From: Candidatus Omnitrophota bacterium
Lineage (GTDB): Bacteria; Omnitrophota; Gorgyraeia; Zapsychrales; Zapsychraceae
Length of the DNA: 64,000 nucleotides
Reading direction: 5' to 3'
NCBI GenBank assembly: GCA_029261065.1
Contig: JAJDCB010000011.1
Location: 47,168 to 111,167, forward strand
In this document: positions 1 to 36,500 of the stretch, in pieces
Position numbering within the stretch: position 1 is the first letter of the stretch
Layout of the letters: each line of letters opens with the position of its first letter
Made by a program: the position numbers and the translations under genes
Notes under the pieces: model-generated
Seen by the model: only the letters and a program-made list of their open reading frames with translations
The model's database searches: none
Told to the model about the DNA's origin: nothing

Positions 1-560
1 TTGATGCCAAGGTTTACATTGATCAATAATGCGACTCAATCTTTAAGAGGAGCCACTCGATCCTTTGTGCATGGGAATTACAATCAATCCATCATCCAAT
101 TTACCAAAGCCATCAAACAATCGGATAACAAGTGGGATGAGCCTTATTTGGGACGAGGAAAGGTCTATTTGGAGCTTAAAGAATATAAATTTGCTGAAAT
201 GGATTTTCGAATGGCTTTATCTTTAGGAAGTGATAATCGTGAAGCGAAAATGTATTTAGGGCGTTCATTATACTTTCAAGGACAGTTTCATGCCGCGGAT
301 CAAATATTTTCACACCTAACGGTAGCTCAATTTGATCGTCGAGATTTTTATCTCTGGCAAGCAGCTCTGTTTATTCAATTAGAACAATGGAGACGTGCCC
401 TATTTGTTTTAAATGCCTATATTGATTTTATTCCTTCTCATCCGACGGCCCTGATATATCGTATCTATACACATACAAAACTCGATCAACTAGATTTAGC
501 GCATGAAGACATAAGAAGGCTTTTTGCCATTGGGTATGCTCATGATAAGTTTGATTTTAT
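1..560 (+). other. TPR-like repeat region (domain of giant ORF)
   Basis: Translation shows 34-residue helical repeats with the W/LG/Y...A...F...A pattern (e.g. ...GRGKVYLELKEYKFAEMDFRMALSLGSDNREAKMYLGRSLYFQGQFHAADQIF...). Confidence 0.5.
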
Positions 561-9500: not shown

Positions 9501-12500
9501 CCTAAATATGTTTGAAGGCGTAATGAAAGTGCTTGGAGTTGATTCGAAACATATAAGAATTAAATCCAATGGGGCTCCATGGATGTTGCATCTTTTTGAT
9601 ACGTATCAAATGATGGGTTGGGGTGGCTATAAAAACGGAGTTCGAATTGAAAACTTAGATATGACACAATTTAGCTTTGTTTTTCATACACTATTTATGC
9701 CTAATGCACCGTACAAGTATATTTTGAACAAAAGAAGTCAACAGAAGATAATACAAAAAAGAAATCACACGCATTTAGATTCGAGACGAAAGGTAGTTGT
9801 TGTTGGGTCCGTAAATAGAGAGAATGTTGATTTTCTTGTCGATATTTATAATCAATTTGAACCCACTCAAAGGCCGTTATTGATTTTTGCGATGAGGAAC
9901 GATAATCAAATGACGAAAGAAAATCTTTCCTTTAGAGATGATATAAGCGTTGCCACACGTAGATCCGTTGATCCCTATTTAACAGCACAAAACATACCAT
10001 TTAAAGACTTAGATGTTGTTATTTTAACGACCCAAGGTGAATTGAAAGATTTATATGCAATCGCAGATGTAAGTATTATAGGACCAGATCAAAATATGAA
10101 TGAGTCTATGACAAATGAAGTCTTTACATTCCATTTTGGTAACAAAAATGAGTGGATCAATAACGCGTTAATTTTAAAAATAGCCAAAAAGTTTAATGCC
10201 GTCAAACAAATCCGTGTACCAACATTTTTTATAGACTTACAAGACGCGTTAAATAATCCAACTCAAAAGCAAGGAGCTCTTCGTAAATCTAATGAATACT
10301 TCGATAACATTATCATACCAACAGAACAGTTGCTTGCCAGATTATATATTGCCAACGCCCTATTAGGAGACGTCAAGACTGGCTCAAGTCCTCTTTACCT
10401 AATAGAAAGTGACAGGCACCAATTAAGCTCGCCCATGAGCGGGAATCGAAATAAAAGGGTGCCTGTCACGGATTATTTTTTTATTAGAAATTATTGGAAA
10501 TTTCGTCGTAAGGCACAAGTGAATGACGTGCATGTTGAAGATAGCATTGATGCAGAATTTACGACAGATAAAGAAGGAGAGGTTAAAGAAGACCCTTCAT
10601 CAGCTCTTAAAGAGCAAGGAGAAGGATATGGTTATAAACAAATTGTATTAAATATGACATCAATTTCAAGCCCATTAAATCCATCAGATATAAAGAAAGA
10701 GGGTATTGAAAGGGTTGTTCAACAATTAAACCAAAATGGTTTTAGCCAAAGACAATCTGAAATTATCGCGGATGAACTTGTCAGTAGCCTTAAGTGGCTT
10801 AAACGATGGTTTGCTAATTTTGAGGAGCTTAGTAAAAAACAACAAAATAAAATTTTAAAAGACGCCCTTTGGTATAGCAAAAATTTAAAATCTTATAAGA
10901 CGTATAAACATATTAGAAAAATTAAATTTTCTAGTCATTTGCTTAGCTTTATTATTATGTTAGTTGCGTTAAGAGGGATAGTTTTTGACGAAGACTTCTT
11001 GGTTTTAAATTGGATGACGTTAGTCCTTAGTATCGTATCAATTTTATTAACTATCGGGTATGAGATTTGGGATGTTATAACGGATCAAGGGTATTATTTA
11101 GAGAAAACAAACTCGGTAAAAATCAGAATTAAAGCTACGGATAATGAATCAAAATTAAGAGAGCGTGTCGCTCATGAGTTAGCGCATGATTTTCTTAAGA
11201 AAGAAATCGTTGTTGAAGCCTTTGCTCGTTTACGTCTTCTAGCAGGAGGACATCAACATATGAATCCTGATGTTGTCAAAGTCGTCGAGGAGTTTCCTGG
11301 TGATCTCAAAAAGGTTCAAGAAGTTCTTAAAGCCAGAGCCAAAAAACCAACAGGCATTTACTCTTATATTATTCTTAAATTCATCTATCCTTCCATATGG
11401 GAATATGATTACGCTCATCAACTTGCACAAGTCATCTATCATCTCTCCCAATACAACGATAAACGAGCCTTCCAGACGGTATTTCTATTAAATAAAAAGT
11501 ATTCTCTAGAAAAAGCATTAAAAATGAGTGCTGAGTCGAGTTCTGCAATGAGTGTGAAAGCCAATGATAAGAAGGTAAGAAAAATAACAAGTGACAGGCA
11601 CCAATTAAGCTCGCCCATGAGCGGGAATCGAAATAAAAGGGTGCCTGTCACGGATTATTTAGTTAATAGTTTACAGTTTAATTCATTAATAAGCTTAGAC
11701 GGCTTTAGAAGCAATTTAGAGTTAACCTCCAGCGAGAGAATAGGTTCTCGAGAATTGACCCTATTTATTCCTGTTTTTGCCAATTTAGCAATGAGACGAT
11801 CAGAGGAAGCTGGACGAGCGAGGCGGACATCAAAGCCTTTTTCACGGAGTTTGAGTGATATTTCTCTCGGTATATTTTCATCACAAATAATACGCATTAT
11901 TCAATTTTTTAATAGTTTACCTAAACGCTACGGATTCGCCGCGTTTCATAAGGTCACTGGCAAAGGAAAGGGCCGCTTTAATGTGCTGTTTGGTCAATTG
12001 AGGATAGTAACGGGTAAAAATCTCCGATGGGCTAACACCCGCTTGGAGAAGTTCAAGTACCAGGTAAACCATTATGCGAGTACCTTTAAAGCAGGGTTTA
12101 CCGTGGCAGATTTTTGGATTGATAGTTATATAATTTTTATAATTATTCATAAAAAGAAGTTCCAGCGCTTGATTAATATATTTAAAAGTAACATAGATAA
12201 TTCTTTAGGTCAAGTTGCGGTTGCGGAAAGTCGTGGACTTGGCTTTAGGCGTTCTTTAGTAAGCGTGAGCGAAGACATCATTATCCCGCAAGCAAGCTCA
12301 TCTCCGCTTAGCAGTAAGAAAGATCTATATAAATATAAATTTAATCAGATTAACTGGAAATCGGAGCGTCGTCGCGTGAAAGAGGCCCTTCGCCAGGTTA
12401 AAAACGGCAGACGCTTTAGCAATCGCATTACAGCATATGTGGATGGAGAACAAATATGGGGTAGGTCGGGACATAATGATATTTATGACTGGATGCCAGA

Positions 12501-15500
12501 TTATAAACGTGTCGCCATGTTCCGACCTGACCCTAGTTCTTTGATAGCTAGCACTCAAGAAAAGTCAGAAAATTTATCTCAAGAAATTATGATAATAAAA
12601 AGTGACAGGCACCAATTAAGCTCGTCAATGAGCGGGGATCGGCCTGCCGCGGATTATTTCCAAGCCTTCATCGTCGAACACACACAAGCCGCTACAGACA
12701 GGATTGAGTTTGCGCGTCAGCAGTTCTTAAAAATACAACAGATGACAAATCAGCAATTATTTGATGGCGCTATAAAAATTATTCGTCGAGGGATGGTGAA
12801 ATATGATCAAGACTTGGAAGATGTTATAAGAGCTTATTCTGAAAGAACAAAGGGGATAGGTTTAAATTTGGCTCGAGAAGCTTTGGTTAATGATGCGGCG
12901 GCGTTTATGGATGCTGTAATGAGTTATCAAATTTTGATAAGTGATCAACAACAAGAGGCCACTCTTGATCGTATCTTTGTGCGCGCCCAATCAGATGGGT
13001 TCTTAGATCTTCACATAGATAACCGTTTGACTTTGTACATGGACCATAATTTAAGGGAAGAAATTCTTAGTAATTTCTCTAAAGGGGTAGAGGAAGCAAA
13101 AATAAGGTTAACTCTTAATAAGCTTTTTAATATTTATATTGTTCGATTACTCCAATTGGTTTCTCTAAGAATTTGGGATGATCCGATTAATAATTTAATG
13201 GCATTACAAACATTAGTTGATGATTTAAATCATTTTACCAGTCAGGGGCAGAAACGACAGGATACGTTATTCGTCACACAGGCCACAACGCTTTTAGCTT
13301 TAGCTGTTTCAGCTACTGTTAATGCTAATGATGAAGAGCAATATTATCGTAAATTTGCGGATTTTATTAATAAGACATATCTTCTTAATGAGAATCAGCA
13401 GTTAGAACTTATGCTTGCCCTTGTTAAATTTAACGCTCAACACTTAGCGAGCTTGATTCGCTTTAAATCACGTGTAGCCGATATGTTTAGAAAAGAAAAT
13501 CGAATGGATTTCTATCTTGCTGTGCACGGAGTGATTGTTTTATTACAACACTATAAAAATTTAAAACAACAACATCAAACCGTAACCGTTGAAAAGATCA
13601 CAGAAGCCGTTCAAATGATATTTGAGACGGACAAGGAACCCTTTTTAGGATTAAGAGAGCCGGAAACATTAAGTGCTTTATTCACGCAGATTTTGGTGAA
13701 AAATAACCATATTGTCACAGACTACTACTTTTATTTAATTCACGACAATGCGAATGCATTGTTAAAGGACATGCAAGATTTTAATGTAGAAGGTAAAAAA
13801 TATGCACCGCTGTACAACGAAGTCTTGTCTCCCGACATTTTATTTGAGGCCATGATTCGCAACAAATTTCTAAAAAAGGATGAAAGCCTAAGAACCCATA
13901 ATTTCATTTTTGAGTCACTATTAGAATCCACACAAGATCCATTAAAAGCACAAGCTTTTCACAATATATTCAGCATTGAGACATGGGGGCTGGGTGTTTT
14001 TGGTAGAGAGCTTATTGATTTAGATAGGACATATGAGGTGTTAAGGACGTTTGGTTCAATTTCCAGCTCGCCTATAAATTATAACCCACCAGAGGCCATT
14101 ATAGTATCCCATAACCAAGGATTCCGTTTTGACAAAAGTTACGCGCGTATTATTATTGATGGATATCGTAAACTATCTAAGAAATCGGGTGTACTTTTAA
14201 AGAAGTCTTTGCGGAGTAGTGAAACAATGGATGTGTACGAAGGTATTTATCCTGTTGATTATTGGTCATTTAGATTTGATGACGTCTCGATAATTAGCAA
14301 TTACAGGCCGTTTCGTGCTTATCGTATTGAGCAAGAAGAGCGTGTGAGTACGACTTTTATGGCTTCACAAGAAGTTGTTTTAGCTACATTTGGTTGTTCG
14401 TCCTGTGCTCCTGTTTCATATTTTGGTGTTATACCAGAGGCCGGTGAACAAATAATCATGCAAGGACATATTATGGCTGGAATAACTGACCGCATTGGAG
14501 TTAATCAATTTCTTAGGATTAAAGAGGATGTTGATTTTTTAAGGGGGTTAGGTGTTCGTCATATTGAGGTGATTGCTTCGATTGATTATAGAGCTGCTTA
14601 TTGGCGAGAGAATCTTCAACAGTCTATTTGGACTCCAGATTTTTTTACCTTTCCTTCTGATCCAGAAGAAATTATTGGGGAACTAGGAGACGATGTAAAA
14701 GTAACAATCTTGACAACACCAAATAGGAGATTCATTAGAAGAGATATGTATGCAACAAAGTATGGTGTGGCTATTGTTCCTGCAATTGACCCGGAGGCTT
14801 TTCATGTGTTTGATTGGCAGGGGTCGTTGGAAGGGCAATCTTCTCCGACAAAGGCGTCTAGCCCAATGAGGATTAATCCTTTTGATACGCAAACGGAAAT
14901 TAATTTGTTTGAGTTAGCTCCAGATACACAATTTGAAATCGAGATATCTGATCTTAGATTAAGTAGCAATGGTGTCAATCTTGGATACCAATTGGGTCGA
15001 TTTATTCAACTGTTGAAACTTTCAAGAGAATTACAAGTGAGAGCCGAGAAGGGTGGGTTGAATGAAATGGTTGCTTCTTTAACTAAAGAAGAAAATTCTG
15101 AGAGTTTGATAAGTAGTTTCTTTAGTTCCGATGAAATTAAACATTCTCATCAAAAAGAAAGTGAATCCAACGAATATGTATTTGTAATGGAGATTTATAA
15201 TTTATTGCTTCAGTTCCTTTCAGCCAAGTTTAAAAAAGATCATCTTATGTGGTTACCTAGTGCTGCAGAGCAGGTACGTCTGAGATGGGAAACAGAGGTC
15301 GTAAGAAACAATTTTATTTCGGAGTATATTTCCAAACAAACAATTATAAAAATGATATCTATGGGTATTGAAGGGATGGAGCGGGTTTTCAATCCGGAAT
15401 CGGAAATTAAAAATTTGATTGGGTTGTTAACAGGATCCGGATTCAATATTAAAAGGACCAATGGTTATGGATGGGCGAAAGATCGTAGGCTATATCTCCC

Positions 15501-18500
15501 TCATTTAGAAGGAGAGCCTTATTATTATTTACAAGAATCTTTACTTGTAGCACAGATGCAAGAATATGCATTGGAGGGTGGATCAGTGGTTACAGGAGTC
15601 GCGCAAACACCATTTATTATCTTCTCGAATTCCATTCGTGAAGGTAAGATTTCTATGATCAAAAATTATTTAATCAAACATGTTCCTTCGTATAAAGATC
15701 TTAAGGTTTATACTTTTCCAAGTGGATGGATCACTTTATCGTATGAGAAAGAAAAGTTTTTGATTGCCAACACGCATATTGATACGGTCATTGGATTTAT
15801 TTCTAAAGAAGTAACGGAGCAAGACAGAAACATTCTACTCATTGACCCACTTTATCAAGCCGAAGTTTCCAATCACAGTGAGTATCAGCGATTCTTATCA
15901 GAACAAAAAGTAATCACACACACCATTGCCCTAACAGAAATACAATATAATCCTGCGAATTTTGGTGTTACACCACAAAGACAACTGGTTTTTAATTATA
16001 GCCCCGAAACCATACAAGGATTACAGTTAAAGAAAAATATGCACATGATGATTAAGGATCCAGAAGAAGCCATTGTTCATGTAGCCTCCCATCAGGGCTG
16101 CCTGGGTTGTTTAATGAATCTTGTTCCAAAAAGTAAGGAAAGGGAGGTTCGTATTATACCAACTATAATGATGATGGATCAAGGAAGTAGTCCAATGAAT
16201 AAAGTAGAACGATTCCATGCACTCTTCGAGCTTTTTAACGAGCAGTTAATGAATCTCGGTATTGATGGGGCACGAGGAAGTTTTCAAGATATGTTAAAAA
16301 TTATTGTGGAGCTGGATTCAGATGATGGTAATGGTGAGGTCTTTTTACAAAGGATTAAAGATAGTCTGGAAAATCATAAATCAATTACCATAGACAACTT
16401 AATATTTATGGATTATCACGAAACCATTCAGGCCATGCAAAGTACTTTACGTGAACTGGGCCATGTTATATCAACTTTTGCTAGTATCGGAGGAGATGTT
16501 GAGGAGTACATCCGTGATTATATGGATTTCAAAGAAGAAGTATTAATGATGGCTGACAATGAAAAGCCTATGGGTCAAACAACGCAACGTATTGCACAAG
16601 CTAATGAAACTTCGATTCAAGCATTAAACCACATGATGCAATACCAAAAAGAATTGATACGGCATTATCCTGCTAAATTAACAGGAGTCTTAATCTACGA
16701 TGAAACAGGCAAGCTTGGACTTATGACAGATCTTAACAAAACACGAGATCATCTCCTACATAATCCTGATGTCGTTGTTACATTCAGGTATACAAAACCC
16801 ATGTTTGATGGTGAAGGTGTTGCTGGTGCAAATCAGGATAAACTGAAACAGTCGATCATCGATGAGGTTCTTGAAGCGACATTTAATACGGGTGCGATCT
16901 ATGTCCATCGGTTAACACCTGAGCAATTTAATGATCCAAAAAATATCGGTCTTCGTATTGTGCTAAAAGAGGTAGAACATTTTGTTGAATCCCAACTGCG
17001 CTTAGAAACAGTGGTTCATTCACTATCCGATGCCTTTTCTAAATATGAAGAAAAGTTTATTGTTAATCAACCTATTCGAAGAGTAATAGGTCTAATCGAA
17101 CGATCAGAAATAGAGTTAAATAATGGAAACATTCAAAGAGCCAAAACAACCCTTAGCGATGCCATTACCATATTAAATTTAATAATAAATTATAGTGGTC
17201 TCGTTTCATCAACCGATATAGCTTATCAAACTCTTGTCATGACCGAGAGTGTAGATCCAATTAAACGGGCAAAAGAACTTCTGGAAATTATCGAAAATCG
17301 TTTACAAAATATAGAACTAAACCCTGAAGTGTATCTCGACCTGGCTGAACGCAGAAAACAACTTGCTCGTGAATCAGGTAGGTATGAAAAGTTCGACAGA
17401 TTATTACAGCTTGTAGGACCGATAAAGGTCAATGAGATGTTTTCAAAACATTTAGGTGAACTCAGCATAGCAAATAATGTAAGTGACCACTACCCATGGT
17501 ATTTCGATGTCAGATTATCCATTTTCCCAACGTTAGATATACCAGGTGTGCCAATTTCACTAATAGATGTAGATACCAATCAAATCATCGCAGAAGAAGT
17601 AATTCATTCTAGTTTAACCTACCTAGGATTTTCACTATCATTAGAAGAAGAGAGCACATCACTACAAATGGAAAAAGCAACATTTAAAGACATCATTCCT
17701 CATTCATATCGCCTTGAAGTTAGAAGTTCGTCCTCAATGCATGACAATCAAAATCAATTCGTGCCTGTCACTGATTATTACAATGATGGATCTGTCAATA
17801 GGTTGTTTGAAATATGGACCAAAGGAGCAAAGAGCATCAACGAGCTTATTTTTGAGGCGAGAAAATTAAATTTTACGGCAATTTTATATCAAGAGGGTAT
17901 TCTTAAATCAATAAAAGGAAATAAATACCATGATATAGATCCTCCTTATGCAAGGTATTTTGATAGCCACTTATTAATTAATCTGTTTGAAAATATTCGT
18001 CAGCATACCAATGACTACGCTCTTTATCTATGGCGTGAAAGTGATGAAGGGTTTGAAATTATTTTATTTGATTATGGGCCTGGTATCTTAAATCCTCTTG
18101 GAGAGCCCGTTTCAGACTTAGGAAAAATATTTGATGATTACTCATACAGTAAAGGTGGAATAGGATTCAAAGGCAAAAATGCGGGAGGAGGAGGTGGTTG
18201 GGGAACTCATTCATTTGCTGTTTTTTCTTATTTAACAAGACTAATTTCAGTAAACGCCGGATATGTTCGTGTCGCTGAAAAAGAGGACCCGGGCTTCAAG
18301 AAACTTAATCATGATATTGCTGTCAAGCAGGTGAATATACCTACGGAATCCCTTAATATTCGGCCTTCTCATTCTGGCGTGATTCTTCATGCATTTAATC
18401 CATTTAAAAAGTCCTATCTCGGAACATTTGCGGATGTATCTAACAATTCTATATTAGGAACAATTCAGACGACGAATGCCGTAACAGAACAAAGAGGGCC

Positions 18501-21500
18501 TTGGCAATTGCCAGTTGCTGCGGGATGGAACACTTTATCTATAGGCGATCAAGTTGAGCTGATCTATTTTGTTTCCAGTGAAGGGGAGAAACTCGTTATG
18601 ACCAGCGGGCGTGTCATTGATGCTTTCCAAGATGACTCCTTAATAGAAATGGACAAAGGAAGGACACTGAATAGTCACGATGTAAGGCGAGTGATAACTA
18701 CACGCGGAGAAGAGAAGACAGAGAATTGGCAACAAGTAAGAGGCGCGTTTTTTAGATTGGGTGTAAGCGACGGCTTGACGGTTCAAATCGAATATAGAGT
18801 GGACCGTATTATTAGTGAGCGAAAATCGGTAAGCGGGATTATCCAAGAGATTCCAACCAAAGAAAATACAGGGAACTTCGTTATTAAAATTCCTAAGAAA
18901 GTAAAATCATTTACCTTAAGCCTATCTGAATTAAAAGAGTTTAACCTAATTCAAAAGGCAAAAGCAAAAAGGGTCAGTTCCCCATTTAGCAAAACACTAT
19001 TAATAGATGGCACTGATCCTCAAGAAATATTATTTAATCAATGGTTTGGAGAGAATTCCGTGCTTAAAGGAACTTTCCTCCAGCAAATCGTAACAGAGGT
19101 TTTGATTGAAGAAAATAATCCGTATGCTTTAGATGTAAAAATTATTACGAAGGAAGGAGAGATTAAAATTTTTGTTAGACGTCCTTGGCCTGCTTTTTTA
19201 AGACCGGTATCGATAACATGGCTTTCGGTTGAATTTAATTCAGGTGACAATATACGTAAGCGCCATTCTAGAGATGTGTTAATGTTGATGCTTGACTGGC
19301 TTAAAATTAGAGGATTTAAGAAAGTTATACTCGATTTAAATGAGGGAAAAGCAGTGGGTTTCTTTAGGGCAACACTACCTAGTTGGGCGAAAGACGAAGG
19401 TGATATTACTTATCGTATTGGCGGTGTTGTTATGCATAAAGCTTTTATTTATTTGGAAAATATGGAATTTAGGCGGCAAGAACAACCAAGGGGCAATTCT
19501 CAAGGCTCCGACACCATCTCTACTTCATCACCCCTTTATCAGGAGGATGTTCTAATTCTTGAGAAAGGAACAGATCTTCATGCACAGATGATGAGCTCGC
19601 CTAATCCTTTGCAGTGGATTTATCAAGAATTTGTTGCCCCAAGCATCATTAAGCCGGTTCTTTTAAGGGTAACCGCGCTTGGTTTAGATCAGGCTTTATT
19701 TGTTGAAAAGGAGTTCGATTCTAACAAGGCTCTATTGATTAGTCAGTTAAAAACTATGATTCAAACAGGGCCTGTCTCGTTATTGACTGTAGGAAATGTA
19801 GGCGCAATAAGTTATTCTGATGAACTCATTGGTGTGGATCTGACTTATCAAGACAATGAATATCATTTAGAATTTGAGATTATCAAAGGAAGTCGATTGA
19901 CAGAGCTTGGGGTCAAGTCTCGACTTACCGACACCTTTTACTCAAGCAGCTCAATTCGTTCATCTGTAGTCAATTCGAGACTTGACCACGAAATTTCTGG
20001 GGCATTCTTGCCGTTAACTTTATTTCAGAATATTGACGAATCAATCGCTGAGGATAATCATCTGGCATTGCTTAAAAGAACGGTATCTGTAGATGGAAAT
20101 GATCATGAAGTTGTTGTTGATATCCAGGGCCGTTATTTGAGAGTGGATTCTTTGATCATTTTGACGAGACAACTTGTAGTGTCGGAAGATTCAAAAATTT
20201 ATCAGAGTAACGATGCCGTATTGTATACCAATGGCCCGGTTGAGTTTTTATCATTTGTCGTTCCAATCATTGTATCTATGTTCGACCATAGGGATCTGAT
20301 TAAAGACAAGACGGTATTTGAGTATGGTTCAGGTCAAGGTTTGCTTTTACTGGTGGCTCTAGGCCTTGGGGCAAAGCGGGTTGTTGGTATAGATTCTCGA
20401 CGTCATGACCATGAAAAAGCAAAGGAATTATTAGATAATTCGTTTTATGAAGGGCGTATATTTGAAAATTTAACAACCTTTTTTGATCATACACAACTCT
20501 TTGATGGGAAATATATTCTTATTAATGACAATATTAATGAATGGTTTAAATATGATCAGGACAGTCGCAATCAAATTCTCGGCTCAGATGAGCTAGTCTA
20601 TATTGTTAACATGGGACATTCTTATGACATTCATGAACAAATTTTATCAAATCAATTTGGGGAACACAATTTGAGACAAAAATTATCGATCCTTGGTGGA
20701 TTTTCAAATGATGATTATTACAGAGGCTTCGATAGGTTCGGCCATAAGAACACAGCAAATCAATTACGGAGAGGGAGAAGTCAATGGCATGTGGAAGAAG
20801 TAAATTACAATTTTGGAATTAGCTATACAGCCTTAGTTGTCCGGCCGAAAGGATCCTTGCCGGCTTTTGATTCTGGGGATGATGTGAGTGGGATAATAAG
20901 GGGCAGATTTTTTACTAAAGCTCGTTTGAAAGTAAAGCCAGCAAATGTCAGATTAGATCCCGGCACAAATAGTTCACCCTTAGCGTTAAGATTTATTGAT
21001 GAATATAAACGTTTAATACAGGACATAGGTGTGACAAGGGACGAGGCAAGATTTTACGGCACAGGTGAAGTGAGGGCATATGAGGTGGGTCAATGGTATG
21101 AACATTACGCGGCCGTGATGGAAAACGAAAATCAATTTGTTAGCGTGCAGGAGAAAACCAGAGACTTCCTATTTTATATTGCCGCTATAGAGCAAACGGA
21201 TTATGAGCACATGAGTAATATGACGATAGAAGGGAATAATAAAAAGTTAAAATTTTACAATCGGCTAGAACGCACCAGAAAATTATTTAATATTTCAGCT
21301 CACTTAAATATTTTGAATGATCAAGAATTGGCAGTTCTAACTGAAACGATTCGTGGCTATTGGTTGAAAAAAGGTTATGAGAAGAGGTTTGCCTTTAATA
21401 TTCTTGCAGGGCTTGTATACGATTACTATATCTATTCAGCAGAACGTTTTGAACGATTTGCGAAAAATGTGATCATTATCCTGGATGGCGGTGATCAAAA

Positions 21501-24500: not shown

Positions 24501-27500
24501 TTTAATTGGTCACTCCGATACGTTTGAATATCTGAATGTTACGGATCAGCTTGTAAATGAGCAAACATTAGAGTTTCTTCAAGCTGGCCGTGACGTGATT
24601 ATGACAGTCCCTGACTTTCATGTAGAGCTACAAAGAATGATTAAAGAAGCGCAATTTGAGATTATGAAAGTCGCCGTTCTTACAACAATCGATCAAGTTC
24701 GCGAGATGAAGCGCGCCTTGAGGTCATCGTCTCCTTTCTTAAGCAAATCTCAAAAACGCAATGTGTTTGTCACGATTGTTTTATCAATTGCAGGTGTTCT
24801 GGCATTTACATACCCGGCTTACGGAGGCGGTGTATTTATATCATTGTTTGCTAGCAAGATATATTTCGATTTCAGTGTTGATCAAGCAAATAAGTTTCAA
24901 AAGGCGGTCATGAACGCGGCATATGAACACGATATCACGAATGATCTGGTTATAAACATAATCTGGAAGAAGCATAATACGAAAAATTGGGATGTGAAGG
25001 AAGGTGCTTTAAATATTAAAGGGAATATGTTTGCAACGACGATAGGCAGCAGTCTTTTCATATCGGTTGTTTATTATAATTTTGCTTTACTTCTTTTAGC
25101 AGGCGATTTTCGTCTTGACGATTTAGATTCATTGATAGGTGGTGTCGGCGTTGGATTGATAGCTTACGCCTTTCCTTATTTGAGTACCTACGCTCAAGTA
25201 ACACAAAAAATTGCCAAAGCAGATAGACTATTTAAAAAGGTTAAGAATGGTGAAAATACAGATGATGAAATTGAGGAATCAGATAGCGACTATATTAATC
25301 CAGTTTCTTCACCGTTTATTGAAAATTTTAAAGAATCAAGGATGAGTAATTCAGAAGATAGCAGACGCTTTAACAAAGCACTTGGTATGTTTAGGGTTAC
25401 AGAAGAAATCCGAATAAAAAGTGACAGGCACCAATTAAGCTCGCCGATGAGTGGGGATCGAGATAAAGGGGTGCCTGTCACGGATTATTTAAGCTCGCTC
25501 ATCCTGGTTATAGGATTAGTTCTTTCTATGTTGGCCGGTCAGGATATGATGCGGGGTGCCATGTTTAGTCTGACACCGTTATCGGAAATTTTTGCGACGA
25601 TGTTTTCTATTTGGATGATCTTTTCAGTACCAACTAAGGTGTTTACAGGAGCTGTGTATATTTATCTTCTTAATCAGGCCCTCATTAAGCCACTACGAGC
25701 GCCACCGCGCATTTCAGAAAAATCTGAAAAAGATAACAATTTAAGTCCTAAGACCAAACGACCAAGCTCCCCCATCCAGGCTATAGGATTAGTTCCTTAT
25801 ATATTGGCTGGTCAGGATATGATGGGGAATGTTTATACGATAAGAAAATATAATGCGTCGAGTGCAGTAGAAAGTTTCAAACATTCAATAAATAATATTG
25901 TTACCTTTCCGCACAATTCTTCTCGTATTTCTTTGGCAAATCAAGATATTGCAATGGGTAGGATGGATTCTGCTTTTGGAAAGCAAAGCATTAGGGTTCA
26001 TCCCTATTTATCCAAGTTTTTAGGAAGGGATAGGTCGAGTATAGGAGCTGACGGGAACTTCAACAAATTTTTTAAATTGATTCTTTTTTACAGAACTTTC
26101 CATCCGTTTAGCAACTTTAGCCGTAAAATATTGTTCGCCGCATTGTTGGCAGACGCCAGCAGGAACTCCACGAAAAATATAAAGTTTGCCGTTGGATCTA
26201 AGATCAACCGTTACCTTAGCTTCTTTAACAGCGCCTCCGCAAAAAGAACAATCACTATATTTATGTTTATTAGGCATTTATTTTCTCCTTTGTTCAGGAT
26301 TTATCCATTTAGGACGTTTGGGAATATAAACCGTTATAATTCGCAGCCATTTATTCGAAAGAATGCTACATACGATGTGAATAGATTTGCCTCTCGATTT
26401 TCCAAAGACAAGACAACTTTTCCCACGTTTATCTTCAGGGTAGCGCTCAATAATTTTACCTTTAATAATGGCAGTTTCGATGGCCTTCAGACTAATGTTT
26501 TCATTAAGTCTTTCTTTTTGCGCATGAAGACTGATTTCATATCGTTCATGAATAATGCAGGTTCTGAGGTTTTCAATGTTCATAAAATATTTTATTTTAT
26601 CTCAAGTTTAAATATATTCCCTTACCGAATTGCTCTTAAGATAACAGTTCCAAAGATTATTGTCAACCAGGGGGTCTTAACTTTGATAGGTAATCAAGCA
26701 AGCTCCGCCATCTTGGCTATAGGATTAGTTTCTTATATGTTGGCCGGTCAGGATATGATGCGGGATGCCATGTTTGGTTTGACGTCTTTACCGGACATCT
26801 TTGCGGCGATGTTTTCTATTTGGATACTCTTTTCATTACCAACTAAGGTGGTAACAGGAGCTGTGTATGTTTATCTTCTTAATCAGGCCTTCATTAAGCC
26901 ATTACGAGGGCCACCTAAAAAAGTTTCCAAAGGGCCTTCATCGCCTTTGGCAAATTTACCAAGATCATTCATCCTGGCTATAGGATTAGTTCTTTATATG
27001 TTGATCGGTCAGGATATAATGCGGGGTGCCATGTTTGGTCTGACGCCTTTATCGGAAATTTTTGCGACGATGTTTTCTATTTGGATGATTTTTTCAGTAC
27101 CAACTAAGGTGTTTACAGGAGCTGTGTATATTTATCTTCTTAATCTAGCCCTCATTAAGCCACTACGAGCGCCACCACGCATTTCAGAAAAATCTAAAAA
27201 AGATAATGATTCGAGTCCTAAGACCAATCGACCAAGCTCCCCCATCGAAAATAAAATTTATAAAAAGCTACCTGAACTATCTAAATATAAACCCGATAGG
27301 GAGGCTGGGGTATTCTGGGTGTGGGAAGCTAATATTCCATTAACAGATAGTCAAATAAGTTATTTTAACAGAGAGCTCAGTAAGGAAAAAAGATTTAAGC
27401 GTTCAGACTTTAAAGGTAATTATCGTATATATATAAATCCAAGACCATCAGGTATTATTCAAACCATTAAAATCATTCGAGACGTCATTAGTACTTTTGG

Positions 27501-30500
27501 TAGTGCGAGAACAAAGTTTAAATATATTGTTCCATCACAAAATATAATGGAAGTGGATGCGTCGCACCTAATGTACCAAGATTCATCAACATCAAAGATC
27601 GTTCTATATTTAGCGACATTACAAGATGCCCTGACTATGCTTGAAAGGCTGGCTCGGGAACCTGCATTGCAAACCATTAAATCAATGGGTTCCCTTACCA
27701 ACACATTAAGTTTTAATCACCTCATATCTGTTTCAGGGACACAAAGGGAAATATTTACTCTGAATCAGCCGTATAGCGATAACGTTCTCAATTTTGTTGA
27801 TCCGAAAACGGGACAAGGTAAGTACATCTGGACAGTTTATGCGGGATTTGAACGCACTCAAGAGTTAATTGAGCCGCTGAAGGAATTAAAGGAAAGGCTT
27901 GGAATACAAAATGATGCAAGTTCAGCAATAATAAAAAGTGACAGGCACCAATTAAGCTCACCCATGAGCGGGAATCGAAATAAAGGGGTGCCTGTTACGG
28001 ATTATTACACTTCAGCTGTGTCAACAGAACAAACTTCTGATATTGATATATGGTCTCTACAATGGAAGGGCGGGCCTAGGTCAATTTGGGGTGACGATAG
28101 TTTGAATTTAGCAAAGCTTATTACTCATGATTTAAATACTTTTTTTGAATCAATTAGGTTAAGTAATCGTCAATCATTAATTCTAGATGTAGGGACGGGA
28201 GCAGGAAAAGTTATTGAGGTGGCTTTACAGGTTTATAGACGGTTTAGAATACATGGCATTGATTATGCAGAAGTTAACCCTGATAATTATTCTCAACTAT
28301 TTCCAGCGTACTTTTACCGTATGTCCGCAGAAGCCTTAGCATTTAAGCAGAACACCTTTAGGTATTTAGTTAGTGCGTTTGCTTTGGAATATATGGACAT
28401 ACCAAAGGCTCTTCAGGAGTCTTACAGAGTCGCAGTTCCTGGAGCTGAGGTGCAATTATATCTACATCATCCTCTATCAGAAGTTGTGGAATATTCAGAG
28501 TTACTTCGAATCAGGGTTGAACGTATGCATCGCAACAATATTTTTGGACATGCAAGAAAGTATATAAATACACCTAGCACTAAAAACAAAAAGAATTTAA
28601 TTGGAGCTTATAATAAAATTGCAGGTAAGCGATTAGATGGTTCTTTAGATTATTTTAGAGCGTTGGTAGAAGGTCCATTAATGATACAGGAAACACGAGA
28701 AGATTTATTGGATGTGTTATTAATTAAAGAGAAGGGATTTAATATAGACTTGATAAGATCTAATTTAACCCTTGATGCGGCAAAGAAAATTCCATCTCAA
28801 GTCAAAGAACTAACAGAGTTACTTTCACAATCAGGATTTGTGGCAACCCGTAGAGAAGTTCTTTATATGGAAGGAAAAATATTTGGCTGGGCTGTGAATT
28901 TATATAAACCTACTTCCAGCCCAGTCAAAGAAGTAAGTCACGATGAAGTTTATGAACGAATCCTTACAGAGAGTTTCAGACATTATTCAGGTGTTTCATC
29001 TCATAGTGTGAGAAGAGCGATTGATTATTTACATACTCAGCGCGAATATCCTAAAACACAATTAATAACAATTAATCAGTTTTCAAAATCTAAACAAAAG
29101 ATGTTATTGAAGGCTATTCGTTACAGAGAACCTACCTTAATACAGAACCTAAAACATTTAAAGCCATCTTCACCTATTCATGACTTGGATAATAATATTT
29201 TAAAACGACCTCTATCTTTCTTGTTCTCAAAACTAAAATACTACAGAGCCCTCTCTATGATTAAAGGTTATAAATCCGCGTATGAACCTAATGATATTAA
29301 CAAAGCTTTACTGCACTTCTTCCCATTGTCTTACAAAATAGTTATCGCAACATCTTTGGAAGATTGGGAGCTTGTCTTAGAAAAATACAAGATAGAGGAC
29401 AGAGAGGTGGCTGGGTTTGTTGATTTAAAATTAAAAGTGTTGGCCATATATAAAGGTGGGCTAGATCAAAATAGTTATTTAACGCATGAGCTTCTTCACG
29501 TCATTCGGCTTTATGAACTTAGGCGTCGAATTCCGGATATTCGTAGTTATACACTTTTACATGCAAGTTTAAGAAATTATCCAGAGGTGTTAGAGAAGTT
29601 TATGGTGGTAATGGAAGAAATTTCGATTTCTTATTTTTCTGAAAAACCTGATTATGTATATTTGAAGTTTGAAGTTATTGAAGAGCTCCTTGTTTGGTTA
29701 ATGACAGAGATGTATTACTTTGATCAGGAAGACATGGAGTTAACAAACAAAGAACAACAGTTTTTTGTTCTGAGTGGAAAAGGAGCACGTATTCTGGCAG
29801 CAACGAAAGATTTAATTAGCCTGTTTCCCGATTCGAGTAAGGAATTATTTATTGATTATCTGTCAACGAACGGTTTTCCTCTTCCTCAAAATTCCACGTT
29901 AAAGATAAACTCTTCACCCCTTAAAACATTGACAGTATCTCAACCTGACCCTAGGTCTGTTCTACAAAATACTTCTAGTCCAATATCAAATGTTCAAAAT
30001 CAAAATGAAGTCAATCAAGATGATTTGAATGAAGAAATGGATTCTTTCTTTACTTTGATTTTCTCGAAATCATTTCAAAAAGTGACAATCTTTATTGTAG
30101 GTATGGGTTTAATAACAACAGGATTCTTGTGGGCATTTTATCCAACGGCAATACAGGTAGATTTGATTGCAAATTTTGTATTCTTTTTAGGAATGCTAAT
30201 CATTGCGGCTAGTTACTACTTAGGGGATATTTTTAAGAAAACTACTTCAATAACCCAGATGTTATTGTCAGGAAAGAAATTATCAGCGAATGATGCGTTG
30301 CGAGAATATCTAGATTATTCGTTTCATTTAGTACTTTATGCCGTTCCTTTTAATTTATTATATTTATTTATTTTAGATCCAACTAGAGCGCTTGTTGAGT
30401 GGACGTTCATTATTGTGATTGTTGTTAAACTTCTAACTTCCTTCTTAGATCAAAATAGGTTTTTCACTTATTCCTACAGTAAACGAATGAAAAATAGTTT

Positions 30501-33500
30501 AAATCAAGTTATTAAATTATTTAAAAAAGCCCTTGAAACAAAAGATTCAGATTTGCTAACAAAGGCAATTGTAATATTACAAAGAGAACGTTTAATTATA
30601 GAAAACGAAATAGAAAATATTAATAAAGGTCTTCTAAAAAACGTATTTGGTCATGCGATAGTGCATAGTGTGCGAGCCTTAATTAATCTAACAACAATCC
30701 GTGCTGTTACAGTAATTGTTACAGAAGCATATAAAAATATAAATGGGGGCAATATTAATAGTCGGGAAGCAAAAAAAATTGTAACCCTTTTAAAGGAACA
30801 TAGAAATGTATTCTATACAGAAGGTACATATAACATATCAAAGCTTAGTGAAGAGATATTTAAAAAGGAAGTTTCTGATTTGGTCGCAGAATATGAATCT
30901 TTAATTCTTAATAAACCTTCTACGCTATTAAAATTAAAGAGGCTACTACTCTGGGGTTATAAGGCAATAATTAGAACTAAAATTTTATTGGGATTGCAAA
31001 CTAGAGAAGGGAAACGCGAATTAGGAGCAAATAGAAAAGTCGTTAGTACAATTTTAAAAAATTATTTAAAGGCAAAGAGGAACTTAACAGATGAGGTTAT
31101 TAATTTTAGATCGTATGATGATCGAATAATAGACACAAATATGGAAACATTATATGAGATTTTTAATTTAATAAGTCTTGGGTATACAAAAATATCTTCT
31201 AGTGAACACGGCGATTTTGTGGATATAGAAAATAAGGCTAACGTCAGTATATTCGGGTCTACAAGTAATGATTATTTAACAGTACTTGAAGAGGGATCAA
31301 AAATTAAAGGTGTTAATTTTATACTTGCTAAACGAATCGATAATGGAGCATACAATGATCGTCGTATTCTAACAATTTCAAATGGTTTAATGCTTCATCA
31401 TAGACAGGCATCATTTATAAATTTCAAAGAACCTGTAACCGTGCATTATGTGTATCGACCTACTAAATCTATACAAGGCACAGTTGTTCCAACGCCGTCT
31501 ATTCCATATATTGATAGCCCTATTACAGGTAAATTTAATTCGCTGTCATTTATAAAGAAAAATGGATTATTTGTGCCGCATTCTTCATTGTATAGAGTTG
31601 ATGAAAGCGAAAATTCTGATATGGAATTATTTTTAGGTAGATTATATCAACAGATTTCAGAAAGTTATAGTCGGCAAATTGTAATCAAACCAGATCTTGG
31701 AGATAATGGGCGAGATGTAAATATTATTAATGAAAAAATGCTTGGGGATCATGAGGCAATTGAAATAATATCTGACATGATTAAAGAAAGAAAGGAAGCG
31801 TTTCTAATTCAAGAACGAATCATACCACCATTTATCATAAAAGATGGAGAGAAGAATAATTGGAATTTAAGGGTGTTTGTTGTGTTAGATAAAAATGATG
31901 AGCCTGTTGTAAGACGAGAGGGTGTTGTTGTTCGTTATGGTAAGTCTGGTGGAGCGATCAATATTGGTAAGGGTGCAAAAGTTTTATTATTTGATGAATT
32001 AGCCTATTGGTTAAATTTATCTTCAGAAACAATGGATAATTTATTCGATCATGTTCAAAGAGCGGCTGTTAAGACATATCTTTTATTTGATAAGTATTTT
32101 AAAGAGAACGAATCTTCGAAACCAGGACAAAGATTTGCAGATCTTTTTGGGTTAGATGACATATTTAAAGAAGGTGATGAGACTTTAGAATTGGAACCAT
32201 ATGCGATGGAAATTCAAGGTAGCGGAGGAATTGGAATGGGGGATCTTGATGAGCATATTAAGACCGATGAACTAAGAGTTTCATCAACTTCAGATAATTT
32301 GATTGGCGCATCCGTTCGTGATTTTGTTGCAACCGCAGCAAGAAGAGCCAATGTTTACAAAGCTGAATTAGAAAGTACTTCTTCTCCGATAAAAACAAAT
32401 CTGGGCGTTAGTCTTAGCGAATATACAAAAGTTAAACACCAACGTACACTGTCCCGACCTGATCCTAGGTCTTTCTTGATTGCAGATATCATAAACAAAA
32501 ATGCTTTTGTGGCAGGGCGGGAATCTAGTCCAATTGCCCTATTTAGATTCATCCAGCATTCTTTCCATCAACCACATCCGAATCATGGTCAGATAGCCGA
32601 TGCCTTTGCGATGAGCGATGATTTTAAGGCGTTGAATGTGATCTTCTTCAAGTCGCATCGAGACGAGGCGTTTTTTGGGTTTGGGGAATTTGATGTTTTT
32701 AACTTCTTTAAGAGTGCCTTCGTATTCAATCAACGAGTGCGTTTCCCAGAAACGAACTTCTTGCGCTTCCGTCCGGAATTTAGGAATACGTTTACTTTTC
32801 TTTTTCATGATCTATCTCCTCAAGTATCTTTGCCGTTCTCGTTGATCCATATCGCGAGCCGTTATAACACGGGCAAAGGTGCGTCCTCTAGGAATGACAA
32901 CCACCATCAAATAGCGGCCGCTACGAGTTTGGCCCAAAATGTAATATCGACCCCGTGGGCCTTTAAGAAGAAGAGGTTGAGTAAAACAAGCCACTTCGAC
33001 TTCATCCAAGGTAATTCCATGCTTGGCAATATGGGAAATATTTTGGGCATCCCAATAAAAATGCGTGAATCTCAAAGGATCTTTCCTTCCCTAAAAGTAT
33101 ATATGTATATACAAAAGATGTCAAGTTGGGCAAGGTTATTGGGTAAGATTTTGACTGTTATTAGGGTTAATGATGTTATTTGGACGAAAATGATAGGGGC
33201 AGGAAAAGGGCAGAACGATTTCACTTTCTACAGAAATAACTATATAGTAAATTTTAAAATTGTTCAAGGTCAGGATGGAAGAGATTATGGGATCAGAAAA
33301 TTTGAACAAAAAATAGAAAATTTCGTTCAAGTCTCTAACCCAATCATTGAAAGAGCCCAACAAAATGATCACCATTCGCGTGAGCTTAGTATATTTGATG
33401 GAAACTTGGATAGAGCAATCGCACAAAAATTTACGATTTATCCCAATGCTCCCAATAGCCGGATAAAATTAATTTCTTCCCACCAAGCATCCCCTGTAAA

Positions 33501-36500
33501 AGATAGTCGGACATCAGTTTATTTAAAGCGTTTGTTATTATCCAAATATGTAAGGAATGTATTTGCTTTTATGATGGGAATATCTTTGTATGGATTGAGG
33601 ACAAGCAGGTCCTGGTCACCGGTTACAATGATATTGGCTTTGCTGATTATTGCGGTTTCTAGAATTTCATTGTCTTTGGGATCACGGCAGATATTTATTT
33701 TGGATTTCGTTTTAACAAATGTCGCGTGGGATAGAAGAAGATGGGTGATGGTTTCAATGGTATCAGTGGAGATGAGGGACTTGAATTTCTTGCGTCTAAT
33801 AACACAACAATATTCTTCGAAGAGTGTTTCAGATAGGCATAATTCAAAAAGTGAAGCTTCAAGGGCTAGTAGAATTTTGCGGCAGGTTGAACTACCTAAT
33901 AGTCCAGAAACAATAATATTTGTGTCAACGACGACCCTCATAAAATTCCTTGCGGGCCATATCAATCTCTTTAGAGATGTCTTTTATCGAAATCTTTTTA
34001 GCCTTACGTTTGTTATCAATATCTTTAAAAATTTTGCAGAGTCGAGGTTTGAGAGTATCTTTTTCAAGTTCTCTAACCAACTTAGTTCTTTCAACTATCG
34101 AAAGTTGATTAATCGCTCTTTTGAGTTGGGCATAGTTTATTTCAATTTTAACCATATCAGCTATCTCCTTTTTGTAAGATATTCTAGATATAACACCAAT
34201 TCCTTATTAAGTCAAACTGATTCCAGGGAAAAAATGGTGTTAGAAGTCGGTATCACGTTGGTACCTATAATTTTACACATTAATTTAGTGAAGCAATCTG
34301 AATTAAAGCTTATCTTGTTGATGTCACATATGTTAGCGTCTTCTGATACCAATATCTTCTCGGTTCAATTGCGGAGTGCTTCCTCCTCAGCTAAAGGATT
34401 AATGACCTTAGGTGTCACATTATCCGATGAAAATATGGTTTATGTATATGCGTATGCGGGGCAGTGGAAACAAGTAAAAGCTATAGGAGAAAAAGCTTTG
34501 CCAGCTCTGCGTCTTTTATTAAAGGATTCAGATGATAAGTTTCGAGAGAGCGTGGAAGAAATGCTTATTAAATTTAAAGATCAAGATGAAACGACGGTGA
34601 AGCATTTTATTGATCAAGTTAGGAACGAAAAAAGTGTCAGGGCAGTGACAGCTCTTGGTACACTTGCTCATCCTATGGCTGTTGAAGTTTTGTTAGAGAT
34701 GATTGTGCCGTATATTAAGGATCATTTTTCAAGTTCATATGCTGAGGTTTTGGATAAAACAGTATTCTTTTATAGATATCATTATGGTATTCATGGAGCA
34801 AGTATTCAGGTTCTTCAGGAAATTGGGCCTAATGCGATTGAGGAATTTCTTAAGATCATTGAGAAAACACAGATCGAATGGGAAACAAAGAAAAATGTGC
34901 GACCTATCTCTCGGTTTATGATCGCTACAGCTCTTGAATATATTGGAAAGTTTGGGCTCTCGGCCAAGGATGACGTTATTATCACGAAAATTTTACCGGT
35001 TTTGGTTAAGTTTTTAAATAATGAAAGTCCTGTGGTCGCTCATACGGCTAATCAAGTTGTCCATACATTGGCTAGTAAGGCCGCGCCGATGACACAAGAG
35101 GCCAATGATCATTTGGCTCATAGATTGCAGCAAGAAAACATTGTTGGTCTTATAGGTCCAGCCAATGCGTATGATGCGTTTAGACAAGTGGAACATATCC
35201 AAGGCCAGGGCGCGCAGTTTGTTTATGCTTTTAGAATGTCTAAGCTTAGATTTGACAGTGACAAAGAAGATGTTGCTTTATTGTTGTATTCCGCGCTCGT
35301 GTTTGAGCATGATCAATTGCGATACGTTCAATTTGATCAACCCGTTCGATTACATCAAGTTTTTTATGTTAATCATGAGGGGATACAAAATGTTGATTAT
35401 AAAGTTCTCTATGCTGCTTATGAAAGCCTTGATATTGATTTAGGAAGTTTGGTCTATGAAAGACAAAAAGGATTCAAACATTTTCAAAGAGTGATTCGTT
35501 TACGACAATATCGCCAGCAATATAGGGATTCAGTTGTTCAATATGTTGTTGAGTTTCAAAACAAATTATTTGTTTATTTTATTGGAGAGTATTTTGAAAA
35601 GAGTGAAGAAAATCTTTTGAAGTATTTTGAAGAGTTAAGAGCGATGTCTATGCGCAAGGAGGATTTAGAAAGAGAATTAGAAGAATTTAGTCTTTATTCT
35701 TTAGAGAAACGTATTAGCAAGGGTAATTATGGCTCTTCACCAATAAAGAAAGAAAACACTCTAGACGCAACCCCTGGCAGGACAAATCGACAATATTCTC
35801 GCAAAACATCCAGCCCAATGGTGCGTTCATTTGGAACGATGACATATTCTGTGGATGCGAGCTTTGTGAATATTGTTCTTGAAAAGCAAGGTGATAGGAG
35901 AGAGAGTCGAATTTTTAGACCAAGATTTATGGCTTTTTCGGCTGGTAAAAATCCTCAATATGAGGAGTTTATAAATATGCCATATCAAGACGCCCAACGA
36001 AATGCTATTTGGAAAAAATTGGCACCGCACATTTCTCAGAGTCGTATGGTTACAGTGTTTGAAGAATTATTAAGCAACGCGTATCAATCCATTTTAGAGG
36101 CAAAGAGAGAGCCAGGAACAATTGAGGTGAGTTTTTATATGAATGATAACGATCTTGGCATAGATTTTAAAGATGATGGCGTAGGGATTGCTGATTTAGA
36201 TGTGGATCGGATGTTTAAACGTAATGAAACAACGAGAGGCTTTATGCCTCAGGATCCTAGTGGGGGGAGAAGAACTCTTACTTATGATCAAACACATAGA
36301 AGTGGAGAAGGCTTAACTCTGAGTCGACATTTTATTGAAGGAACACTAAAAGGAACGTTACATGCTTTGAATAATCCGGAAGGTCAGGGATCTATTTTTA
36401 GAATTAATTTTCCTGTGACACAATCTTCAGCGATTTTCGAAGCATTAGAAGGTAGTAAGAAACAATTAGAAGTCGATAACCTTTCATCCAGCGCTGTCAT

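Follow-up and report, generated by a model that had tools for sequence, protein, structure and literature searches.

The stretch analysed here, referred to as the window, comprises 64,000 nt of contig JAJDCB010000011.1 from a Candidatus Omnitrophota bacterium. Its plus strand is occupied from end to end by one giant open reading frame (ORF), and opposite to it lie small genes, mainly of type II toxin-antitoxin (TA) families. Frame +1 contained no TAA, TAG, or TGA codon across the 64,000 nt, whereas the remaining five frames held 1,019-2,226 stops each. An ORF listing of the window reported none longer than 150 aa, because the giant frame extends past both window ends. Translation of frame 1 yielded approximately 60 protein-like units of usual size, and Pfam domains of at least eight types were detected, all in frame 1, including LOG, HATPase_c (three copies), TPR, methyltransferase, Glu/Leu dehydrogenase, HEAT, and Mpv17. 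Its size and domain tiling are those of a giant protein, i.e., one ORF of >10,000 codons with many distinct domains. The GC skew was positive in each 2-kb bin of the window (cumulative +4.66), and this uniformity is consistent with a single direction of transcription and replication throughout. A change in the genetic code was considered and rejected, as the stop codons of the antisense genes include TAA, TAG, and TGA and frame 1 is free of every stop type.

The original prediction described four TA cassettes, eight genes in all, encoded on the minus strand inside the giant ORF without breaking its frame. All eight ORFs were present, Pfam and NCBIfam profile searches of the antisense ORFs gave strong family matches on the minus strand, and no frame-1 stop occurred inside any cassette. 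We identified a fifth antisense locus as well. Genes whose end coordinate is divisible by 3 are codon-aligned with the host frame, and the others are offset (remainder 2). The giant frame, its antisense genes, and the longest cassette-spanning spacer are as follows.

1..64000, plus strand: giant host ORF in frame +1, >21,333 codons, open at both window ends, with units joined by SSP[LIMFV]
3547..3792, minus strand: LA_3696-family small protein, fifth antisense locus (NCBIfam NF047472, E=1.2e-13, above cut-off), codon-aligned
11655..11897, minus strand: toxin remnant of cassette 1, DUF5615-like/PIN-like (PF18480, E=1.5e-4, below threshold), offset
11917..12150, minus strand: antitoxin of cassette 1, DUF433 (PF04255, E=1.5e-23, full-length), codon-aligned
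26020..26277, minus strand: antitoxin candidate of cassette 2, YgiT-type zinc-ribbon (TIGR03831, E=3e-12, above cut-off), codon-aligned
26278..26583, minus strand: toxin of cassette 2, DUF4258 (PF14076, E=1e-21, profile positions 1-70 of 71), codon-aligned
32539..32808, minus strand: antitoxin of cassette 3, CopG/BrnA ribbon-helix-helix (PF12441, E=6.4e-16), codon-aligned
32812..33075, minus strand: toxin of cassette 3, BrnT (PF04365, E=5.9e-13, 49.4 bits versus a cut-off of 34.5, profile positions 1-77 of 77), codon-aligned
33519..33965, minus strand: toxin of cassette 4, PIN (TIGR00305, E=4.7e-27), offset
33925..34155, minus strand: antitoxin candidate of cassette 4, VapB15-like (NF047401, E=8.6e-12, full-length), codon-aligned, overlapping the toxin start
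32530..34400, plus strand: sense-frame spacer over cassettes 3 and 4, approximately 624 codons with no stop, 47.6 expected (probability of being stop-free, P0=3e-22)

Three TA operons are apparently intact and one has decayed, in addition to the single LA_3696 gene. In cassette 3, BrnT aligns with a solved BrnT-type toxin structure (7vd7) and lies 3 nt upstream of its antitoxin gene, whose product scored 22.6 bits against the NCBIfam BrnA equivalog (cut-off 60). The genes of cassette 2 abut, with the start codon of the antitoxin following directly on the stop codon of the toxin. Its YgiT-type protein (85 aa) aligned only with positions 1-58 of the 127-position MqsA-family model (23 bits versus a cut-off of 61.8); it has no MqsA C-terminal helix-turn-helix and is therefore regarded as a YgiT-finger protein, not MqsA proper. 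Residues D6, E43, D87, D90, D109, and D111 of the PIN toxin were invariant in alignment with two homologues from cyanobacterial plasmids, and its true start is likely the ATG at 33941. An exact look-up of this toxin in a 153-billion-gene index did not find it. The VapB15-like candidate (76 aa) scored 45 bits versus a curated cut-off of 80, had no match in Pfam, and is not homologous to the antitoxins beside the plasmid PIN homologues. All four modules had been called classic, which is not supported for cassette 1, the toxin of which is degraded. Its DUF5615-like match reached 22 bits (cut-off 23.8) over profile positions 1-46 of 110, and relative to the Leptospira DUF5615, 23 internal residues (DKDF among them) and the final 16 are missing, the C-terminus being replaced by a hairpin repeat. 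Ten further antisense ORFs had no Pfam match; two of these were also run against NCBIfam, where only 3547-3792 matched (LA_3696), and the remaining eight were searched with Pfam alone.

Ribosome-binding motifs of the GGAG type were found upstream of most antisense genes. These motifs and the two best promoter-like sites are listed below.

5' of the LA_3696 gene 3547-3792, minus strand: Shine-Dalgarno-like motif AAAGGGGA
5' of the YgiT-type gene 26020-26277 and of the VapB15-like gene 33925-34155, minus strand: Shine-Dalgarno motif AAAGGAGA
5' of the CopG/BrnA gene 32539-32808, minus strand: Shine-Dalgarno motif GAGGAGA
26638..26666, minus strand: promoter-like site upstream of cassette 2, TTGACA-17-TATCTT, 10/12 consensus matches, extended TG
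33096..33124, minus strand: promoter-like site upstream of cassette 3, TTGACA-17-TATACT, 11/12 consensus matches

As had been claimed, six of the eight TA genes were codon-aligned with the host frame, and the DUF5615-like and PIN genes share the offset register. Including the LA_3696 gene, seven of nine antisense genes were codon-aligned (binomial P ~0.008), as were all five upstream genes (P ~0.004). In the codon-aligned register, a sense-strand stop corresponds to antisense TTA, CTA, or TCA, and tabulation of Leu and Ser codons bore out the predicted avoidance of these three codons. Outside the cassettes, the host uses TTA for 42% and CTA for 9% of Leu (51% together) and TCA for 22% of Ser. 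Unlike this background, the six aligned TA genes, with 38 Leu and 29 Ser codons, had no TTA, CTA, or TCA versus 25.9 expected (P=1e-15), whereas the offset genes carried 5 (DUF5615-like) and 10 (PIN) versus 8.7 and 12.5 expected. The Leu codons of the aligned TA genes (CTT 18, TTG 9, CTC 6, and CTG 5) follow host usage renormalised without TTA and CTA, and the genes therefore look host-adapted rather than like GC-rich imports. BrnT uses only CTT and TTG for Leu, and its PLLLKGP segment is indeed written CTT CTT CTT. The complete absence of TTA, CTA, and TCA from the aligned genes is forced by the open host frame and so cannot count as separate support. Independent support comes from the offset-gene control, the register bias, the host-like Leu usage, and the comparison with natural homologues.

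Our data support that the open frame across the cassettes is not due to chance and that it reflects selection against sense-strand stops. According to base composition (stop probability of 0.076 per codon), 23.5, 21.9, and 47.6 stops were expected in the three cassette regions, with P0 of 2e-11, 1e-10, and 3e-22, respectively. These values, from 1e-10 down to 3e-22, agree with the proposal that purifying selection keeps the giant frame open, and the stop-free chance of one in 10,000 suggested earlier was too generous. Approximately 2 kb of the cassette regions is non-coding on both strands and likewise stop-free. The two alternative plus-strand frames contain 16 and 19 stops across cassette 4. 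In a synonymous-draw test, where the protein sequence of each gene was fixed and codons were drawn from host usage, P0 per gene lay between 1e-3 and 3e-2 in the register used and, for all genes, below 1/4000 in the worst register, where no antisense gene lies. For the LA_3696, DUF4258, and BrnA genes, the offset register was 10-400 times likelier to be open by chance; all three are nonetheless aligned. The aligned register alone imposes no amino-acid constraint, and the aligned genes satisfy the requirement for openness by synonymous choice alone. The DUF5615-like remnant is stop-free in its register because it contains no Tyr, His, or Gln. The register bias favours sustained selection over one lucky insertion or a one-off filter, judging from the arrangement of these genes.

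Homologous cassettes of similar GC behaved differently. Those compared, all on plasmids, were VapB-like/PIN cassettes in Geminocystis and Nostoc and DUF433/DUF5615 in Leptospira, and they had 7-20 stops in every antisense frame and used TTA, CTA, and TCA normally. The window DUF433 is 43% identical to a Leptospira DUF433, whose gene adjoins a DUF5615 gene and contains 3 TTA, 2 CTA, and 2 TCA codons. In this comparison with one Leptospira homologue, the window DUF433 retains the matching Leu positions by means of other codons.

The sense translation over the cassettes had been taken for non-functional spacer, in keeping with which the spacer translations had no match to any Pfam family. A codon-likelihood frame plot failed to tell spacers from coding units, as the stop penalty dominates its score. 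The cassettes sit at junctions between protein units; cassette 1 adjoins an in-frame palindromic repeat, and cassette 2 lies inside a repeat array. The palindromic repeat (87 nt) is present in five copies of the same orientation and frame, and it encodes SDRHQLSSPMSGNRNKRVPVTDY in the host frame, including an SSP tripeptide of its own. It can form a hairpin with a 12-bp stem (z-scores from -4.5 to -6.9 in four folds, three copies being folded as the plus strand and one as the minus strand). Only one of its six frames is stop-free, and five of five copies use that frame. An Rfam scan of the window found no known RNA family, and the repeat itself had no Rfam match. The repeat copies and a fragment of the tandem array described below are located as follows.

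10401..10487, plus strand: palindromic repeat copy
11583..11669, plus strand: palindromic repeat copy, holding the stop codon of the truncated cassette 1 toxin
12594..12680, plus strand: palindromic repeat copy, degenerate, with a 12-nt deletion and SSP changed to SSS, closing the cassette 1 block
25413..25499, plus strand: palindromic repeat copy
27930..28016, plus strand: palindromic repeat copy
25756..25831, plus strand: broken-off array unit, first 76 nt, the same 76 nt recurring at 26692-26767

Cassette 1 is thus bracketed by two copies of the palindromic repeat, which suggests that it arrived by insertion. The history of cassette 2 is clearer. A tandem array at 25483-27246 on the plus strand consists of four units of 261-290 nt (261-273 nt as repeat families D1 and D3, starting at 25483, 25756, 26692, and 26953) that are 70-93% identical, each encoding a hydrophobic membrane peptide (ILAIGLVLYMLAGQDMMRGAMF...), most of them ending in SSP. 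Cassette 2 interrupts this array: one unit breaks after its first 76 nt and is separated by an 860-nt insert from a new unit that restarts with the same 76 nt. The spacing from 25756 to 26692 is 936 nt, a multiple of 3. This arrangement supports entry of cassette 2 into pre-existing coding sequence. Flanking repeats were looked for around cassettes 3 and 4 and none were found, and the substitution patterns among internal repeat copies were uninformative about selection.

The tripeptide SSP is the most enriched tripeptide of the frame-1 translation, with 59 sites versus 3.9 expected (approximately 15-fold), and is directly followed by L, I, M, F, or V in 51 of the 59. Its codons differ widely between sites, which marks it as a signal at the peptide level and not a DNA repeat. 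Spacing between sites is highly uneven, from 6 to 2,493 codons (examples at 1060, 2326, 3433, 5857, 16186, and 63073). On this evidence, SSP looks like a polyprotein junction or cleavage signal. Profile searches of the window at E<=1e-3 detected no protease domain. SSP sites flank both sides of the LA_3696-gene spacer (3433 and 3913), cassette 1, and cassette 2. A separate 81-nt repeat occurs at 42352-42432 and 59077-59157 on the plus strand (81% identity); it encodes KSKSRRFSKV.ISRL.EE.RV, and each copy stands directly after SSP.

Relatives of the giant gene were sought in several collections. Two pieces of the giant ORF had no matches in a 5.8-billion-protein index, and a third had nine weak matches (26-39% identity) to ordinary Glu/Leu dehydrogenases. 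A 22-mer of the palindromic repeat was absent from genome, metagenome, and viral contig collections. The dehydrogenase-like unit had no loci in representative genomes, and a metagenome scan by motif alignment returned 80 loci, ordinary dehydrogenase genes throughout, with a longest ORF of 3.9 kb; the closest fragment (P0004) gave no hit in an exact look-up. On the other hand, a HMMER search against 1.84 billion representatives placed sequences approximately 32% identical to the dehydrogenase-like unit deep inside multi-enzyme proteins of 1,900-5,900 aa, one of which also carries starch-synthase, glycosyltransferase, and methyltransferase domains. Long relatives (P0001-P0003, P0008, and P0096; loci L005, L088, and L087) have differing recurrent motifs, D[QE]AM, RSELR, or S[RH]FAE, which suggests that lineage-specific junction motifs may be a general trait of long multi-enzyme proteins. 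The antisense strands of L005, L087, and L088 contained only junk-like shadow ORFs when inspected by eye, without a family search; with just 32% identity and a GC content of 42-56%, these loci have little bearing on generality. In two high-GC metagenome contigs (L003 2171-6493 and L004 2-4142; 68-70% GC), distant homologues of the histidine-kinase and dehydrogenase-like units, 23-34% identical to the window units, are encoded by adjacent but separate genes that flank a response regulator gene.

Given these observations, we consider it probable that the antisense genes are expressed independently and nested within spacers that are translated as part of a giant multi-enzyme ORF, from which purifying selection removes sense stops. 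Ribosomes would have to traverse the spacers to reach the downstream units, and the need for read-through is therefore what would lead selection to remove sense-strand stop mutations. Most nested genes would be tolerated in the codon-aligned register, where the three critical codons can be avoided synonymously at no protein cost, and the two remaining genes would occupy the sole other register with few unavoidable stops. The cassettes may have come as selfish or mobile DNA whose residence was sufficiently long for host codon usage to be adopted. The spacers would be translated and then tolerated or trimmed, possibly at SSP sites. The modules would persist since TA addiction penalises their loss, and they may shield a repeat-rich gene from deletion.

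Several observations weigh against this explanation. We infer both transcription of the nested genes and translation of the spacers from sequence alone. A promoter had been predicted for each cassette; the matches are convincing for cassettes 2 (10/12) and 3 (11/12) but not for cassettes 1 and 4, whose -35/-10 matches are weak (just 9/12); moreover, promoter-like sites in total are no commoner than in shuffled sequence. The cassette 1 toxin is decayed, and maintenance does not extend to every module. For cassettes 3 and 4, SSP sites lie on the upstream side only (32380 and 32524), the next downstream SSP being at 35734. Genome, metagenome, and protein searches provided no related giant gene in which the presence of the cassettes could be compared. 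Finally, a stop-free insert of 600-2,000 nt has no obvious stepwise route, because single stop removals bring no benefit. Pre-adapted cassettes circulating among giant genes are a possible source of such inserts. A bolder version, which we regard as speculative, is that 'ORF-transparent' selfish elements, comprising TA cassettes and palindromic repeats stop-free in one frame, can enter giant genes, move from one to another, and stay in them, with the sense product discarded at SSP in an intron-like manner and the TA genes protecting the recombination-prone host gene from deletion.

Nesting in translated spacers has to be weighed against other accounts of the same arrangement. The TA genes and repeats could once have been intergenic and have been swallowed as co-directional neighbours lost their stops, came into one frame, and fused into the giant ORF. 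The spacers at unit junctions do look ex-intergenic, with REP-like hairpins and small antisense operons, and the separate, adjacent histidine-kinase and dehydrogenase-like genes of the two metagenome contigs hint that the giant frame arose by fusing operon genes. Those distant homologues, at 68-70% GC and 23-34% identity, are not close relatives, however; fusion across an antisense operon would need approximately 20-50 stops to be gone before read-through pays, and cassette 2 splits a coding repeat unit instead of lying between units. We therefore hold engulfment to be unlikely. It is somewhat less likely still that the antisense genes are dead relics and that only the sense frame is selected. 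The decayed cassette 1 toxin and the two weak promoters would fit this, as would the terminators: the scanned regions flanking cassettes 1 and 2 had none, and near cassettes 3 and 4 there were two, both on the plus strand, a count no higher than in shuffled sequence. Against it, eight antisense ORFs of 76-148 codons are intact in frames that have one stop per 15-21 codons, family matches reach E-values of 1e-27, and the catalytic residues are conserved, as are the ribosome-binding sites, whereas drift under a sense-only constraint would soon have added antisense stops.

We give a comparably low probability to the idea that the frame is open and yet not one translated unit, for example because openness keeps ribosomes on the mRNA and avoids Rho-dependent polarity, or because SSP sites act in stop-and-go release of each unit. 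The 15-fold enrichment of SSP, its conservation as a peptide, the L/I/M/F/V that follows it in 51 of 59 sites, and the window without a protease domain in profile searches are all compatible with this idea. We know of no bacterial stop-and-go peptide of this kind, though, and both variants still need ribosomes to pass through the spacers, which leaves the selective logic unchanged. That the sequence is mis-assembled, edited, or generated seems very improbable. Such an artefact would agree with the outcome of the 5.8-billion-protein search, in which the three pieces gave nothing, nothing, and nine weak matches, and with the absence of the repeat 22-mer from three public contig collections. Nevertheless, editing out stops would have harmed the aligned antisense proteins, whose Leu positions and family scores are intact, and a single frame common to all sense units is beyond what editing creates. 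The 32%-identical dehydrogenase-like relatives found with HMMER inside other long multi-enzyme proteins, the uniformly positive GC skew, and the natural-looking divergence of the internal repeats likewise speak against an artefact.

Nested antisense genes occur in bacteria and phages and in eukaryotic introns, where a complete gene lies opposite a larger gene, and in true overlapping genes the same bases give functional protein from both strands. In the window, the sense strand is apparently filler that needs only to be open, and the arrangement is therefore nearer to a translational counterpart of a gene nested in an intron. The cassettes resemble ordinary type II TA operons in family, size, and gene order (toxin first in BrnTA and DUF4258/YgiT, antitoxin first in PIN and DUF433), in their abutting or overlapping genes, and in having expression signals for each cassette. 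Unlike usual type II TA operons, they lie wholly inside and antisense to a larger ORF, and three codons are avoided according to register. The closest precedent for frame-compatible selfish DNA is provided by Rickettsia palindromic elements and intragenic MITEs, which persist in ORFs with the frame kept open and the resulting peptide tolerated (PMC10969869). The 87-nt hairpin repeat resembles these palindromic elements in that all five copies lie in its one open frame. Elements of the Rickettsia type are approximately 100-150 bp and gene-free, whereas the inserts in the window are 0.9-2 kb and carry complete antisense operons. To our knowledge, gene-carrying frame-compatible inserts of 1-2 kb have no precedent.

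Sedentary chromosomal integrons also have promoter-bearing TA cassettes spread across a long, repeat-rich, mostly one-directional array, and these cassettes have been proposed to stabilise the arrays against loss (PMC13108822, PMC11023631). An integron array consists of separate promoterless cassettes, whereas the window is one translated frame, and an integron was rejected since neither an integrase nor an attC-like consensus was present. The giant multi-enzyme proteins described from Omnitrophota share with the window a length of >10,000 codons, the tiling of methyltransferase, HATPase_c, HEAT, and TPR domains, and uniqueness of sequence (bioRxiv 10.1101/2023.11.21.568195; 10.64898/2026.06.07.730766). 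These preprints mention neither antisense nested genes nor junction motifs, whereas the window has both, and they give the cleavage points of giant proteins as unknown. No marker genes for placement in a phylum lie in the window. A literature search on bacterial polyproteins and on antisense TA genes within giant genes found nothing relevant.

Approximately 4 kb of the giant ORF has no recognised sense function, is packed with genes on the opposite strand, and is fully stop-free. The stop-free spacers therefore provide direct evidence, from sequence, of selection for reading the frame without interruption, and they bear on whether a giant bacterial gene is read as a single frame or not. Furthermore, complete and apparently functional operons can, by this reading, reside antisense within a bacterial ORF, where they escape standard gene callers. 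Selfish DNA may therefore have a new niche, with a simple rule for which other giant genes could be searched, namely the codon-aligned register combined with avoidance of three codons.

Elsewhere in the giant frame, two paralogous membrane units on the plus strand (8700-9200 and 23100-23600), without a Pfam match at E<=1e-3, share the motif YxYxRHPxYLGY, which we take to resemble that of isoprenylcysteine carboxyl methyltransferases.

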